The position numbers and the translations under genes were made by a program. The notes below the pieces were generated by a model that had not been told where the DNA came from, made no database searches, and saw only the letters and a program-made list of their open reading frames with translations. A DNA stretch of 64,000 nt. Origin: a virus. How positions within the stretch are numbered: position 1 is the stretch's first letter; each line of letters begins with the position of its first letter. Where the stretch lies: the IMG/VR virus record IMGVR_UViG_3300030328_002122, positions 64,001 through 128,000 of that record; one strand, written 5' to 3'. Positions 3,750-58,403 of the stretch are shown one piece after another.

Positions 3750-4150
3750 ACAATATTGAATGGCATCAAGATAAGATGCTAGAAGTAAAACTAAAAGAAC
3801 CAGATGACTTTCTAAAGGTTCGTGAAACATTATCTAGGATTGGTGTTGCATCTCGTAAAGAGAGAAAACTATATCAATCATGTCATATACTTCATAAACA
3901 AGGTAGATATTTCATAGTGCATTTTAAAGAATTATTTGCACTTGATGGTAAAGGTACAAACATTTCAGAGAATGATGTATCTAGACGAAACTCTATTGCA
4001 TCTCTTTTGAGTGATTGGGGTTTAGTTGAAATAATTGGTGATAGTGAACCAAAAGCACCATTGTCGCAAATCAAAGTTATTTCTTTTAAAGAAAAACATG
4101 AATGGACATTGGAAACAAAGTATAACATAGGGAAGAAAAAACTAGATTAG
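3746..4150 (+). CDS. regA: Translational repressor RegA
   Basis: DDFLKVRETLSRIG and LYQSCHILHKQGRYFIVHFKELF. Confidence 0.97.
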   Translation: MNNIEWHQDKMLEVKLKEPDDFLKVRETLSRIGVASRKERKLYQSCHILHKQGRYFIVHFKELFALDGKGTNISENDVSRRNSIASLLSDWGLVEIIGDSEPKAPLSQIKVISFKEKHEWTLETKYNIGKKKLD

Positions 4151-38318: not shown

Positions 38319-38770
38319 TGAAAACATTCAAAGATTTTCTTAAAGAGGTATCTTACTCCTATGCGCTTGGTAACTATAAACCTATCGCAGATTTAAATGC
38401 GTCTACATCTGACGCAAAATTATCCAAAAAAGATTTAGACTCAGTAGAGAAATATGCAGATAGATTGTATAAATCTGTCGGTATTGATGTTGAGTTTACA
38501 CGACATTTTCTGGATCGTGTTAATGATGTTCGCAACAAAACACAAATTACAGTTGCAGAGTTGATACGTATGTTTAAACAATCATACAAAAAACACGGCA
38601 AGAAAATAGCACAACTTGGGCCTGATGCCGAAGCTGTGCTCAACGATATGCAAACAGATATAAATGTTCCGTTTGTATTAAAGTGGGATGGAAAAGAACT
38701 GGATTTGGTAGCAAAAACTGTTATGAGAAAAAAGAACTTTGGTACTCCAAATCCTAAACTATCATTCTAA
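38318..38770 (+). CDS. Probable internal head protein
   Basis: N-terminus MKTFKDFLKE (CTS-like); motifs FTRHFLDRVND.RN and KTVMRK..F. Confidence 0.6.
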   Translation: MKTFKDFLKEVSYSYALGNYKPIADLNASTSDAKLSKKDLDSVEKYADRLYKSVGIDVEFTRHFLDRVNDVRNKTQITVAELIRMFKQSYKKHGKKIAQLGPDAEAVLNDMQTDINVPFVLKWDGKELDLVAKTVMRKKNFGTPNPKLSF

Positions 38771-44934: not shown

Positions 44935-45951
44935 ATGAAACTGTTTAAAATCTTATCAGTACTATTATTATCATTAAGTGTATCATCTGCATTTGCAGAT
45001 AAATTAAAAGTTGGATTTATATATGTTGGGCCAGTTGGAGATCATGGTTGGACTTATATGCATGATCAAGGTCGATTAATGGCCGAAAAACATTTTGGTG
45101 ACGATATAACAACCACATTTGTAGAATCTGTACCAGAAGGGCCTGATGCAGAAAGAGTTATGACTCAGATGGCTTTACAAGGACATGATATTATATTTGC
45201 AACATCATTTGGTTATATGGAACAAATGTTAAATGTTGCTAAAAAATTCCCTAACATAAAATTTGAACACGCAACTGGATATAAAACTGCTGACAATATG
45301 TCAGTATATTCTTCTAAGTTTTATGAAGGAAGATATGTTCAAGGTGTTATCGCTGGACATATGAGTAAAGAAGGAAAAGCAGGATATATTGCATCATTCC
45401 CTATTCCAGAAGTTATTCGTGGTATCAATGCATTTTGGTTAGGTGCTACTTCTGTTAATCCAGATTTTGACATAGATGTTGTGTGGGTTAATACTTGGTA
45501 TGATCCTGCTAAAGAAGGTGATGCAGCCAGAGTACTAATCAATCAAGGTGCTGATATTATAACTCAACATACTGATTCAACTGCACCACTATCAGTTGCA
45601 GAAGAGATGGGTATTAAGGGTTTCGGTCAAGCATCTGATATGATTCACTTTGCACCTAATACACAATTAACTTCCATCATAGATCAATGGGGCCCTTATT
45701 ATATTAAGAGAATACAGGCTGCGTTAGATGGTACTTGGGAATCTTCTGATACTTGGGGTGGTATGGATACTGGAATGGTTGAAATGGCTCCAATGACTAA
45801 TATGCCTGATAATATTGCTAAGATTGCAGTAAAAGTTGCAAATCAAATAAATGATGGTAAACTAGATCCATTTGGTGGAGAGTTTACTGTAGGTGAACTA
45901 TTAGGAATGTCTAAGTATCTTTCTGGTATAGATGCACCAAATCCTAATTAA
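44935..45951 (+). CDS. BMP-family ABC transporter substrate-binding protein (purine nucleoside type)
   Basis: Signal peptide; GFIYVGPVGDHGWTY.H, IFATSFGYM, FPIPEVIRGINAF, WYDP and GAD...QHTDS. Confidence 0.92.
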   Translation: MKLFKILSVLLLSLSVSSAFADKLKVGFIYVGPVGDHGWTYMHDQGRLMAEKHFGDDITTTFVESVPEGPDAERVMTQMALQGHDIIFATSFGYMEQMLNVAKKFPNIKFEHATGYKTADNMSVYSSKFYEGRYVQGVIAGHMSKEGKAGYIASFPIPEVIRGINAFWLGATSVNPDFDIDVVWVNTWYDPAKEGDAARVLINQGADIITQHTDSTAPLSVAEEMGIKGFGQASDMIHFAPNTQLTSIIDQWGPYYIKRIQAALDGTWESSDTWGGMDTGMVEMAPMTNMPDNIAKIAVKVANQINDGKLDPFGGEFTVGELLGMSKYLSGIDAPNPN

Positions 45952-45969
45952 TAATGAAAAGGGTAGAAA

Positions 45970-46449
45970 ATGAAATCGCCTGAAGAAAAACTTTGGAAAA
46001 AGGTAGGAAAAATGGAACTTGGAAATCCTGTTATAACAACTTTAGTAGGACTTGTAGTATTTTATATTGGCCTTAAAATGTTTTCTGGTGGAATGAAATC
46101 AATGGGAAATATGGAACATCTTACTTGGTTTTTAGGAAACCCTATCTATATGTTCTTTGGTGGAATACTTATGACACTTGCATGGCAATCATCTTCATTA
46201 TCAACTACAGCGATTATTGCATTGGTTGCTTCTGGTGCATTACCACTACCAGCTGCAGTTGCGTGTGTACTAGGTGCAAACATAGGAACAACTGGAACTA
46301 TATGGTTAGCAGGATTCTTTGTATCAGATGGTTGGCCAAAAGGAGATACATTGCGAATCGCTATGGCTCATACTGGTGCAAATTTATTAATGGCACTTGC
46401 ATTATTACCATTTGTAGGACATTTATCAAGGTTTTTATCTAAATTTTAG
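45970..46449 (+). CDS. Na+/Pi cotransporter family protein (single repeat)
   Basis: QSSSLST and GANIGTT signature motifs; hydrophobic. Confidence 0.85.
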   Translation: MKSPEEKLWKKVGKMELGNPVITTLVGLVVFYIGLKMFSGGMKSMGNMEHLTWFLGNPIYMFFGGILMTLAWQSSSLSTTAIIALVASGALPLPAAVACVLGANIGTTGTIWLAGFFVSDGWPKGDTLRIAMAHTGANLLMALALLPFVGHLSRFLSKF

Positions 46450-46502: not shown

Positions 46503-46571
46503 GTTTTTGAGGTTGACTCCATATGCAAAAAATGTTAATATGATTCGTAAACAGAGAGAAAGGTATTAATA

Positions 46572-47750: not shown

Positions 47751-48617
47751 ATGATATTAGTTGATATGAATCAAGTAACCATTAGTAATCTTATGATGCA
47801 AATTGGTTCTAAAAGACAAAATGATGTAGATGAGAACCTTGTTAGACACATGGTTCTTAACTCTTTAAGAATGTATAGATCTAGATTCTTTGAAAAATTC
47901 GGAGAACTGATATTATGTTATGATAACAAAAGATATTGGAGAAGGGATTATTTTCCAAATTATAAATGTAATCGGAGAAAAGATAGAGCTAACTCTAATC
48001 TAGATTGGAATTTAATATTTGAAACATTAAATACTATTCGTGACGAAATTAGAGAAATCTTTCCATATAAAGTAATAGAAGTTGATGGTGCAGAAGCAGA
48101 TGATTGTATTGCGACTATCTGTATGCATATTAACCAAACACCAAATGAATATGAGAAAGTATTGATATTATCAAGTGATAAAGACTTTATACAATTACAA
48201 AAATATAACTTTGTTACACAGTATAGCCCCGTAAACAAGAAGTTTATCAATGGTATTGATCCCTACCTATATATAAAAGAACATATATTAGTAGGAGATA
48301 GAAGCGATAGTATTCCGAATATCTTATCACCAGATAATACTTTTGTTGATGGATTAAGACAGAAACCTTTCAGTAAAAAAAGAAAAGATTCAATTCTTAT
48401 GTCCAAACAAGAACCAGAAGATTTTTGTAATGCAGAACAATTAAGAAACTATCAAAGAAATAAAACTTTAATTGATTTAGAATGTATTCCAAAAGATGTG
48501 AAAAGAGAAATAATGATTGAGTATCGTAAATCACCAAAAGGTGAAAGATCTAATCTACTAAATTATTTTATACAAAAAAGATTGAAAAATCTTATGAATG
48601 ATATTGGAGATTTTTAG
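47751..48617 (+). CDS. rnh: T4-type RNase H (5'-3' exonuclease)
   Basis: MILVD.NQ, YWRR..FP.YK..R, EADD.IA, SSDKDF.QL and GD.SD.IPN. Confidence 0.95.
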   Translation: MILVDMNQVTISNLMMQIGSKRQNDVDENLVRHMVLNSLRMYRSRFFEKFGELILCYDNKRYWRRDYFPNYKCNRRKDRANSNLDWNLIFETLNTIRDEIREIFPYKVIEVDGAEADDCIATICMHINQTPNEYEKVLILSSDKDFIQLQKYNFVTQYSPVNKKFINGIDPYLYIKEHILVGDRSDSIPNILSPDNTFVDGLRQKPFSKKRKDSILMSKQEPEDFCNAEQLRNYQRNKTLIDLECIPKDVKREIMIEYRKSPKGERSNLLNYFIQKRLKNLMNDIGDF

Positions 48618-48618
48618 T

Positions 48619-49074
48619 ATGGCTATGAAAACATATACACCACTACTTTCTGAAGTTTTGAAGAAAGTAAACAATGCAAAAACAAAAGATAAAAAGGTTG
48701 CAGTTCTCAAAGAACATGATACTCAACCATTAAGAATAATAATAAAAGGTTCTTTTGATCCTAAAATTGTATGGATGCTTCCAGAAGGTAATGTTCCATA
48801 TAAACCTAATGAATCAGAAGAAGGAACTGAACATACAGTTCTTGCAAGAGAAGCAAGAAAATTATACCATTATGTTAAGGGTGGTAATGATAGATTACCA
48901 ACAACAAAACGTGAAACTATGTTTATACAATTGCTTGAAGGGTTACATAAATCAGAAGCAGAATTAGTAATCAATGCAAAAGATAAAAAATTACATCAAA
49001 TATATAAAGGATTATCTGCAGCTGTTGTTAAAGAAGCGTTTAATTGGAACGATAATTTTAATAGGAGAACATAA
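48619..49074 (+). CDS. Conserved T4-like hypothetical protein
   Basis: LPEG.VPY and KRETMFIQLLEGLH..EA. Confidence 0.7.
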   Translation: MAMKTYTPLLSEVLKKVNNAKTKDKKVAVLKEHDTQPLRIIIKGSFDPKIVWMLPEGNVPYKPNESEEGTEHTVLAREARKLYHYVKGGNDRLPTTKRETMFIQLLEGLHKSEAELVINAKDKKLHQIYKGLSAAVVKEAFNWNDNFNRRT

Positions 49075-49075
49075 A

Positions 49076-49531
49076 ATGGCATTTAAATTATCACAAAGAT
49101 CACTAGATAAATTAGAAGGCGTTGATGAACGTATGCAAAGAGTTGTCAAGGCTGCAATAGAATTGACTAAAACTGACTTTGGCGTGATTCAAGGTATGAG
49201 AACTGAAGCACAACAAAAAGAACTTGTAGCAAAAGGCGCAAGTCAAACTATGAAAAGTAAACATCTAGAAGGTAAAGCAGTTGACCTCATGGCCTATGTT
49301 GGTTCAAGGGGATCATGGGAACTGAATCTTTATGATGATCTTGCAGATGCAATGAAACAAGCGGCTATCCAAGAAGGTGTACAAGTACGTTGGGGAGCTG
49401 CATGGCAGATTGATGATATGCGAGATTGGGATGGTACAATGGAAGAAGCAATGAACGCATATATTGATTTACGCCGTTCACAAGGCAGACGCCCATTTAT
49501 TGATGGGCCACATTTTGAGTTAATGGATTAA
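49076..49531 (+). CDS. Endolysin, M15 peptidase (L-Ala-D-Glu peptidase type)
   Basis: LSQRS...L.GV, G.RT..QQ, SKHLEGKAVD, RWG..W and DGPHFEL; SD aggag before 49076. Confidence 0.9.
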   Translation: MAFKLSQRSLDKLEGVDERMQRVVKAAIELTKTDFGVIQGMRTEAQQKELVAKGASQTMKSKHLEGKAVDLMAYVGSRGSWELNLYDDLADAMKQAAIQEGVQVRWGAAWQIDDMRDWDGTMEEAMNAYIDLRRSQGRRPFIDGPHFELMD

Positions 49532-49571
49532 AAACTATTGACATTTATATTATGATATGATAGTCTAATCC

Positions 49572-49660
49572 ATGTGTCGTGGGATTGTTAGTCCTCTCTC
49601 TCTCACTCTCAAAAATCTAATAACCCACGACAACTGAAAACCCTCTTATGAGGGTTTTTT
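49572..49660 (+). ncRNA. Candidate sRNA: 16-bp hairpin with a 25-nt CU-rich loop plus terminator
   Basis: Promoter TTGACA (49538), 17 nt, TGnTAGTCT. Stems tgtcgtggg/cccacgaca and ttgttag/ctaataa; terminator aaaaccctc-ttat-gagggtttttt. Confidence 0.65.
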
Positions 49661-49680
49661 GTTTTGATAACAAAAAAGTG

Positions 49681-49735
49681 TTGACAAATAAAACGAATCA
49701 GTATATACTGTAAGTATAGTTAACAAAAGAGGGAG
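49681..49735 (+). promoter_or_regulatory. Early promoter, copy 1 (duplicated at 49917)
   Basis: TTGACAaataaaacgaatcagta-TATACT...gtatagttaa...GA-rich RBS. Confidence 0.75.
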
Positions 49736-49914
49736 ATTAAAACCAATGACATGGGTATAACGAGGGTAACAGAGTGGGTTACAAGTTTGGTAAACTCAAG
49801 GGCCTAATACTCTTAAAGAAGTTACTGCATCAAGGGTGGGTGTCCGAAGCTTGATGACAACTGACAAGGACTCAAGAGGGAACTGAAACAATAGTCGAGT
49901 TCCCTCTTTTTTTT
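49716..49914 (+). ncRNA. Candidate structured RNA or minigene transcript
   Basis: Bounded by a promoter and the terminator aagagggaact/agttccctctttt. More GC-rich than flanks, several stems, only very short ORFs. Confidence 0.45.
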
Positions 49915-49916
49915 AC

Positions 49917-49970
49917 TTGACAAATAAAACGAATCAGTGTATAATATAGGTATAGTTAATAAGAGAGAGA
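49917..49970 (+). promoter_or_regulatory. Early promoter, copy 2
   Basis: TTGACAaataaaacgaatcagtg-TATAAT; first 22 nt identical to copy 1. Confidence 0.8.
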
Positions 49971-50161
49971 TGTATAAAATGGATATTGCAGTTTTACAAG
50001 ACAACATGATTTTCTTTACTGATTTGTTAAATAAATTAGAAAAGAAGAAAAAGAAAACGCCTGGAAATGGTTTTGCAATAATGAAATGCAAAGAAAAGAT
50101 TGCAGAAATTAATCTTATCTTTGATAAAATTAATTATAATTCACAAATTACATACGACTAA
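49970..50161 (+). CDS. Hypothetical early protein
   Basis: Follows the early promoter and AGAGAGAG RBS; start could instead be the next in-frame ATG at 49979. Confidence 0.6.
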   Translation: MYKMDIAVLQDNMIFFTDLLNKLEKKKKKTPGNGFAIMKCKEKIAEINLIFDKINYNSQITYD

Positions 50162-57691: not shown

Positions 57692-57920
57692 ATGAAATCT
57701 TTAATTTTTTTATGGGGGTTTCATAATATAATTCCTTTCACTCTTTTTTTATAATATTAATTTTATAATATTAATATAATCACTTATAGATCAATTGGTA
57801 ATGGGTGGCTAGAAAAAACTCCACTTAACCAACAAAACTATTATTTCATAAAATGATGAATATTAATGTCACCACAAAGTCTGGTTTTATAAATAGTATT
57901 GAGATCTAGTGGGAGAGAGA

Positions 57921-58403
57921 ATGGTAGATCCAGTTACAGCGATTGCAGCCGCAACGACAGCTTTCAATGCGATTAAAAAAGGTTTTCAGTTTGGACGAGA
58001 TGTAGAATCTATGTCTGGAGATCTTGGTCGCTGGATGGGCGCTGTTAGTGATATTGACAAAGCTGACCAATATGCTAAAAAACCACCATTGTTCAAAAAA
58101 CTGTTCAATGCTGGATCAGTAGAAGAAGAGGCATTAAACGCATTTATGGCGAAGAAAAAAGCTCAAGATATGAGAGATGAGTTGAAAAACATAATTGTTT
58201 TTTCAAGAGGCCCTAACGCATGGAATGAACTATTAAAAACTGAAGCAGATATCAGAAAGAAAAGACAACAAGCAATTTATGCACAACAAGAATTAAGAAG
58301 AAAAATTCTTGAAATAGTTGCAGTTGTAGTTATATTGGGAATTGCCACTACTGCAATGGGTTTACTAATTTATGCAGCTGGTGTAAAAAGAGGTCTTTGG
58401 TAG
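57921..58403 (+). CDS. Conserved hypothetical protein with C-terminal TM
   Basis: MVDPVTAIAAA..AF..IKKG...; late promoter TATAAATA at 57888-57895. Confidence 0.65.
   Translation: MVDPVTAIAAATTAFNAIKKGFQFGRDVESMSGDLGRWMGAVSDIDKADQYAKKPPLFKKLFNAGSVEEEALNAFMAKKKAQDMRDELKNIIVFSRGPNAWNELLKTEADIRKKRQQAIYAQQELRRKILEIVAVVVILGIATTAMGLLIYAAGVKRGLW

Follow-up and report, generated by a model that had tools for sequence, protein, structure and literature searches.

Does the short segment that follows the endolysin gene of a marine T4-like myophage encode a small RNA and, if so, what might the C/U-rich loop of that RNA contact? The segment occupies positions 49538–49665 of the 64,000-nt stretch of DNA analyzed here (the window), which belongs to a 145-kb phage genome from an IMG/VR record that is ~95% complete. 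The window has a G+C content of ~32% and nearly all of its genes lie on the + strand. Among isolates, the OM43 phage Melnitz is the nearest, with 68% identity in the DUF6433 protein. An earlier reading of the sequence (the original prediction) proposed a stand-alone sRNA presenting a CU-rich loop that pairs with GA-rich ribosome-binding sites of the phage. Our analysis indicates that the feature is very likely a genuine, conserved and structured RNA gene.

The principal features of the locus are given in Table 1. Beyond the element are small early genes, a cell-wall hydrolase, PhoH and a tmRNA, followed by gp59, ThyX and gp32. The tmRNA is a permuted (two-piece) molecule of the alphaproteobacterial type, which has also been reported for Melnitz and pelagimyophages. 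Further upstream, at 44935–46449, the window carries host-like auxiliary genes for a PnrA/Bmp-type nucleoside-binding lipoprotein and a short Na/Pi-cotransporter-like protein.

Table 1. Features of the sRNA locus, candidate target leaders and selected genes, in window coordinates
Feature	Position	Strand	Basis or remark
RegA translational-repressor homologue	3776–4132		156 bits
T4-type RNase H gene	47751–48617		Upstream of element
DUF6433 protein gene	48598–49074		Upstream of element
M15-type endolysin gene	48974–49531		Directly upstream of element
sRNA promoter, −35 box TTGACA	49538–49543	+	Direct reading of sequence
Extended −10 (TG, one base, TAGTCT)	49558–49566	+	Direct reading; TG at 49558–49559, TAGTCT at 49561–49566
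Predicted transcription start region	49572–49574	+	From position of −10 box
Hairpin 5′ arm, one bulged A	49575–49591	+	Fold; covariation in alignment A4
Hairpin loop, 25 nt, UCCUCUCUCUCUCACUCUCAAAAAU	49592–49616	+	Fold
Loop core CCUCUCUCUC	49593–49602	+	Nearly invariant across family
Hairpin 3′ arm	49617–49632	+	Fold; covariation
Intrinsic terminator (10-bp stem, 4-nt loop, U run)	49636–49665	+	Sequence reading and fold; hairpin at 49636–49659
Candidate target: GA-repeat leader of first protein gene downstream	49955–49981	+	Behind early promoter at 49917–49945
Permuted tmRNA, tag ANNNFAPVDFAIAA	53858–54240
Candidate target: leader and start codon of 160-aa gene	57897–57923	+	Best whole-genome loop complement, −26.5 kcal/mol

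The predicted RNA fold reproduces the structure of Table 1, including a large hairpin at 49575–49632, with an energy of −35.5 kcal/mol (z = −7.68), which none of 200 shuffled sequences equals. The large hairpin contains 16 pairs and one bulge, so that the 16-bp stem of the original prediction is recovered; its loop, previously put at 19 nt, is longer in the fold (Table 1). The expected intrinsic terminator is also present, beginning 3 nt downstream of the large hairpin and ending in a U run that reaches 49665. The large hairpin itself does not have the properties of a plain terminator or 3′-UTR hairpin: no U run directly follows it, and its loop core is invariant among relatives.

Near-identical copies of the sRNA unit (94–98% identity) are found in ~9 viral contigs, where the neighbouring genes are 77–95% identical; these copies are too close for a test of structure. 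More divergent examples come from 80 loci fetched through the DUF6433 protein (56–86% identity) and scanned for stem-enclosed CU-rich tracts. Of 82 related loci, 68 have the element at an equivalent genomic position, instances having been chosen partly because they fold, and 43 distinct sequences are represented. When contigs were instead picked independently, by the loop 21-mer alone, all 22 that were tested have the full hairpin. The element occurs once per genome, downstream of the genes for RNase H, DUF6433 and, in genomes that have one, the lysin; the Melnitz member is at 38544–38601 of MZ577097. Most of the 14 loci lacking an instance have too little downstream flank, and the element is absent from five more distant contigs with enough flank (L173–L177). 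At 40–220 nt downstream of the sRNA, most of the relatives L106–L167 have, as their next transcription unit, an early promoter driving a gene whose product starts MNYIEVNGGNKFQ; the window carries other genes at this place.

Searches from other starting points define the limits of the family. The exact loop 19-mer retrieves only near-identical relatives among viral contigs, together with two chance CT-rich matches (L085 and L086), and a stem-anchored pattern adds two further close relatives, its remaining matches being unrelated high-GC sequences. With the endolysin as anchor, the element appears in just 2 of 78 loci searched with the model (L004–L081); the endolysin is a poor anchor because lysins are common to unrelated phages. 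The 140-aa protein encoded downstream leads to close relatives only. A covariance model of the family (R1) finds no convincing match in HTVC008M, syn9, P-SSM4, ACG-2014d or Sinorhizobium phage phiM7, the best score among these five being 20 bits for a doubtful HTVC008M hairpin. The commonest loop 21-mer is present in only 2 of ~185,000 prokaryote species genomes, apparently a chance occurrence in each. The family is confined to one clade of lytic marine myophages.

Family members combine variable stems with a nearly constant loop core. Stem sequences diverge among relatives, as illustrated by the 5′ arms UGUCGUGGGAUUGUUAG, GGUGAGGGCAAC, GUUGGGGGG, GAUUCGGUUGGC and GUUUGCGGUGCA, yet their pairing is preserved. 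An unguided MAFFT alignment analyzed with RNAalifold returns 11 pairs, all 11 of which show compensatory (double-sided) changes. In the R1-guided alignment, standard pairs fill 88.6% of cells, as compared with 58.8% in column shuffles, and 133 double-sided changes are observed where 38.8 are expected, a number not reached in any of 500 shuffles. Pairing falls to 35–51% when the 3′ partner is slid by 1–3 columns. Invariant or nearly invariant alignment columns are confined to the loop core: in family loops, CCUCUCUCUC, sometimes with one base altered, begins 1–3 nt past the stem, and many loops continue with AAC and a second CU run. A conserved structure thus keeps a conserved C/U-rich motif unpaired, as in the class of small RNAs to which the element was assigned, and the comparison across related phages finds the element conserved in both respects.

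Covariation of the arms would equally keep a DNA hairpin, and cruciforms or triplexes can arise from inverted repeats and (CT)n tracts, so that the repeat and its polypyrimidine/polypurine tract could be imagined as such a structure, or as a protein site, in replication or recombination. The G–U pairs (52 of 640) favor an RNA of the + strand, however, which folds more stably than the opposite strand in 29 of 43 versions, and a promoter and a terminator or tRNA frame the element in a single orientation. A role at the level of DNA is accordingly very improbable.

The hairpin region can also be read as a small protein gene. In Melnitz it is annotated as gene 66, a 60-aa ‘hypothetical protein’ (MZ577097 38547–38726, equivalent to L097 5015–5194) that overlies both the sRNA hairpin and its terminator. 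A leaderless mini-ORF of this kind would start from an ATG at the foot of the stem, close to the predicted transcription start; in the window this ATG, at 49572–49574, opens a 21-codon frame that is not conserved. In 25 of the 43 versions, the CU run would be translated as Pro-Leu-Ser from an ATG close to the base of the stem, but other frames are used in 12 and the ATG is missing in 9. The frames are 12–60 codons long and are interrupted by a stop codon within the loop in the closest relatives, and differences in loop length are not multiples of three. Both arms moreover co-vary so that pairing, rather than a reading frame, is preserved. With start, frame and length all unconserved, we reject the small-protein reading, to which we assign hardly any probability; the protein annotations of Melnitz gene 66 and of similar calls in relatives are very probably mistaken.

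The signals that flank the hairpin are compatible with an independent transcription unit. In the window, the −35 and −10 boxes are separated by a 17-nt spacer. The promoter had been described as near-consensus, which applies to the perfect −35 box but not to the −10 hexamer, where TAGTCT matches the consensus at 3 of 6 positions; the promoter is absent from the listing of a generic promoter scan. It is credible because relatives have the same −35/17/−10 layout at an equal distance from the hairpin, with better −10 boxes (TATTAT, TACTAT or TATGAT). A TTGAC[ACT]-17-TAnnnT promoter stands in register before the hairpin in 38 of the 43 distinct members, and the −10 box ends 3–12 nt short of the stem in 33. 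An outer stem encloses the hairpin in a divergent clade (L148, L157, L162 and L167), and the clade L169–L180 has no promoter directly upstream.

A terminator follows the hairpin in 27 of the 43 members. Some others instead have a tRNA gene that begins 4–8 nt past the stem, including tRNA-Gly genes that abut the hairpin in L106, L112 and L136 and a tRNA at 1106–1176 of L123, where the hairpin–tRNA stretch spans 1042–1176. In these relatives, the sRNA and the abutting tRNA would be one precursor. RNA is represented by two low-depth metatranscriptome contigs from a relative, which cover 49451–49598 and 49461–49660; they resolve neither a discrete small RNA nor its start or strand, and may include DNA carry-over. 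Both contigs bridge the endolysin stop codon and enter the hairpin, indicating read-through from upstream, and one ends at the terminator (49660), a weak indication of a 3′ end.

These contigs, together with the tRNAs that lie so close to the stem in several relatives, are what would be expected if the hairpin acted in cis, as a 3′-end stabilizer of the RNase H–DUF6433–endolysin transcript or as a processing or leader element for the downstream tRNA, with no role in trans. A protective hairpin would not need an invariant loop sequence, however, and would not explain why a promoter is conserved immediately 5′ of nearly all versions. The element also persists while its surroundings change: the upstream gene encodes an M15 peptidase or a GH108 lysozyme or is lacking altogether, and the downstream context alternates between terminator and tRNA. 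We regard a purely cis-acting element as distinctly unlikely. A stand-alone sRNA, as originally proposed, is strongly supported by the conserved stem, loop, promoter and 3′ end, the RNA contigs showing upstream read-through only.

Several other features of the promoters in this region can be noted. The sRNA promoters of relatives contain a co-varying 6–8 bp inverted repeat that overlaps the −10 box. Early promoters of the phage group often contain a different inverted repeat, TGTT-N5-AACA, within the 17-nt spacer (genome positions 131676, 139922 and 140179). Both repeats may be operator sites for a phage regulator. Immediately after the sRNA, at 49681–49912, is a second orphan unit of ~190 nt with a consensus early promoter (TTGACA-17-TATACT) and a terminator. 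Its mini-ORF has only 2–4 codons, both here and in all close relatives, and one stem shows a compensatory change between relatives (CAUCAAG/CUUGAUG versus CACCAAG/CUUGGUG), with a fold z-score of just −0.8. This unit is probably another non-coding RNA or a gene-less leader.

The element does not belong to a described RNA family. In a covariance search of Rfam 15, the element matches Phe_leader best, but the score of 24 bits (E = 0.27; threshold 55) reflects a generic resemblance to a hairpin followed by a terminator. The same search returns only tRNAs for six relatives and only the tmRNA for the whole window. Membership in AbcR/ar15, cuckoo/CcsR, Yfr1, IMES or the phage RNA families is rejected, as gathering thresholds are not reached; the analogy with AbcR and cuckoo RNAs drawn in the original prediction does not extend to common family membership. 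The papers on Melnitz and the pelagimyophages cover the tmRNA, riboswitches and promoters without this RNA, and full-text literature searches gave the same result. The RNA is a previously undescribed family, and a new one within the known class of sRNAs with C/U-rich, anti-Shine–Dalgarno-like loops.

The loop core resembles the anti-Shine–Dalgarno 3′ end of 16S rRNA (ACCUCCUU...), and the 5-mers most enriched before start codons in this genome are AGGAG, GAGAG, GGAGA, GAGGA, AGAGG and AGAGA. The GA-rich leaders cited in the original prediction (near 46552, 47121, 49961, 50582 and 57911) are all present just 5′ of start codons. Pairing of the loop with GA-rich ribosome-binding sites is the best-supported mechanism, and one that we consider possible. 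When ~48,000 windows on both strands were scanned for complementarity to the loop, the two best sites, leaving aside the element's own antisense, were at translation start regions. The first belongs to the 160-aa gene of Table 1, which stands behind a TATAAATA late promoter (57889–57896); the 5′ leader that follows this promoter box is almost wholly complementary to the loop. This 160-aa protein (phrog_32327) is confined to the closest relatives and is absent from Melnitz, and close relatives, which have CTAAATA in place of TATAAATA and a different GA-rich leader, lack the extended match. The second site (−23.2 kcal/mol) is at genome position 140215, in an early leader.

The distribution of GA repeats among leaders provides a broader view. 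Here a GA run is defined as alternating GA of at least 6, and early-promoter genes as those just behind sigma-70-type promoters. In this genome, a GA run precedes 7 of 15 early-promoter genes and 10 of 166 others (Fisher p = 7e-5). The corresponding values are 3 of 21 and 8 of 194 for Melnitz (p = 0.08), 3 of 6 and 3 of 75 for G002 (p = 0.004), and 2 of 10 and 2 of 66 for G003 (p = 0.08), with the qualification that all of these tests overstate independence because several early leaders are duplicated cassettes. In the four genomes with the sRNA that were compared, GA-repeat leaders are concentrated on early-promoter genes; the repeat occurs in only 4–9% of all start regions. In HTVC008M, where no family member was found, GA runs precede 0 of 12 early-promoter genes and 7 of 188 others (p = 1.0). 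The enrichment fits pairing of the RNA with early-message leaders. Against this reading, GA-rich leaders are also simply strong Shine–Dalgarno sites, and timing alone cannot separate the sRNA from its proposed targets, because both have the early type of promoter.

Comparisons between genomes give less. The complementarity scan of Melnitz shows no preference for start regions, its best sites being mostly inside genes. A comparative ranking of targets over four genomes yields one weak candidate, shared by two genomes only, which is the first gene of an early operon and adjoins the sRNA in G002. Cognate loops have no advantage over foreign ones on the leader of the conserved downstream gene (permutation p = 0.39). 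Across the family, these comparisons bring out no target that is conserved or co-varies. The proposal that early mRNAs are bound at their GA-rich ribosome-binding sites by the CU loop stands in part: GA leaders are enriched on early genes and the two best sites are at starts, but conservation or covariation of a target is not seen.

A further sequence recurs in this set of leaders. The hexamer GATTCG is found at the start of early leaders (GATTCGTAAAC) and beside Shine–Dalgarno sites (GGTGATTCG), at window position 46542 and genome positions 132464, 139951 and 140208. It is also present inside or beside the sRNA stem in divergent members (L148 and L169–L180). This recurrence may in part represent an extended Shine–Dalgarno sequence (GGUGAU).

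An invariant core surrounded by differing stems and differing post-core loop sequence is explained equally well by a fixed protein partner. The main rival to mRNA pairing is therefore a decoy or sponge, in which the pyrimidine-tract hairpin soaks up a C/U-binding protein of the host or the phage and alters termination, antitermination or translation. Rho, ribosomal protein S1, NusB/NusE and cold-shock proteins all bind pyrimidine-rich RNA, and the primary site of Rho prefers YC dinucleotides. Each is a candidate, NusB/NusE by way of the BoxA-like CUCUUUAAC. The two CU runs split by AAC in many loops are in keeping with such binding, as is the failure to find a conserved or co-varying mRNA target. 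On the other hand, the loop is short for a Rho-binding site, its resemblance to BoxA is loose, and a seed that pairs with many targets would be just as invariant as a protein site. We consider the decoy unlikely; if true, an RNA that binds Rho or NusB/E would rewire transcription termination in the host.

The best overall explanation, which we advance tentatively, is an early-type sRNA gene whose loop masks GA-rich Shine–Dalgarno regions. In this model, the host sigma-70 RNA polymerase would transcribe the single-copy gene from its own early-type promoter to give a small RNA of ~90 nt, starting at the foot of the hairpin and ending at the intrinsic terminator. Where a tRNA abuts the hairpin, as in some relatives, RNase P would instead generate the 3′ end by cleaving at that tRNA. 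The hairpin would serve to display the single-stranded loop, which would pair with Shine–Dalgarno regions, chiefly those in the (GA)n leaders of early phage transcripts, with host messages as possible further targets. A paired leader would be closed to 30S subunits, and translation would fall as the RNA accumulates. We infer each of these elements, namely the RNA as a discrete species, the loop–leader pairing and the direction of the effect, from the features described above.

A stronger version of this model, which is rather doubtful, is that the RNA is a mimic of the anti-Shine–Dalgarno sequence carried throughout a clade of globally abundant marine T4-like phages, namely Melnitz and its uncultured relatives. 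Made early and in bulk, such an RNA would outcompete ribosomes at GA leaders and time the switch from early translation, with possible shut-off of host messages; it would amount to an RNA-only replacement for early-message shut-off of the T4 RegB type. More generally, if the loop masks GA-rich ribosome-binding sites, the timing of early expression in T4-like phages would have an RNA-based component. Little is known of the regulatory RNAs of lytic phages, and hardly any have been reported from phages that infect the streamlined bacteria dominant in the surface ocean. Melnitz and its host, OM43 strain H5P1, are a cultured pair bearing the element, which makes the proposal directly testable, and covariance model R1 could seed a new RNA family.

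The alphaproteobacterial AbcR and ‘cuckoo’ CcsR RNAs are sRNAs of the same C/U-rich-loop kind. Small RNAs that mask Shine–Dalgarno sequences with C/U-rich loops also include Streptococcus pyogenes FasX, the pneumococcal csRNAs, Staphylococcus aureus RNAIII and RsaE, and Listeria LhrC (PMC4691137); a ribosome-binding site is blocked by a (CU)n seed in the case of FasX on cpa mRNA, and the csRNAs use CCUCCU (PMC4691137). Like the FasX, csRNA, RNAIII and LhrC class, the phage element has a predicted promoter and terminator and a hairpin that exposes an anti-Shine–Dalgarno-like C/U motif able in principle to pair with purine-rich ribosome-binding sites, and FasX employs its UCUCUCUC run in the same way against a ribosome-binding site. 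Unlike these RNAs and AbcR and CcsR, to which it has no sequence or model similarity, the element is encoded by a lytic T4-like phage rather than a bacterium. It is built of a single hairpin whose core is strictly (CU)n, would form part of a tRNA precursor in some relatives, and has targets that are candidates only.

Among T4-type phages, the rnaC and rnaD RNAs (species 1 and 2) of T4 are likewise small stable RNAs of unassigned function that lie beside tRNA genes or are co-transcribed with them. They lack the CU-repeat loop, and their R1 scores of at most 5 bits indicate that they are not homologous. By functional analogy, the proposed outcome for the phage element, shut-off of early messages at Shine–Dalgarno or start regions, would be the same as that of T4 RegB and RegA, which are proteins (a nuclease and a repressor, respectively) rather than RNA. 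A RegA homologue is encoded in the window (Table 1), and no RegB homologue was detected in the phage genome by a search that had no positive control. Other phage-encoded sRNAs, such as those of Escherichia coli prophages, have been reviewed (PMC12197685). These are mostly from temperate phages or prophages and act on host genes in an Hfq-dependent manner, whereas the family described here belongs to marine lytic myophages.
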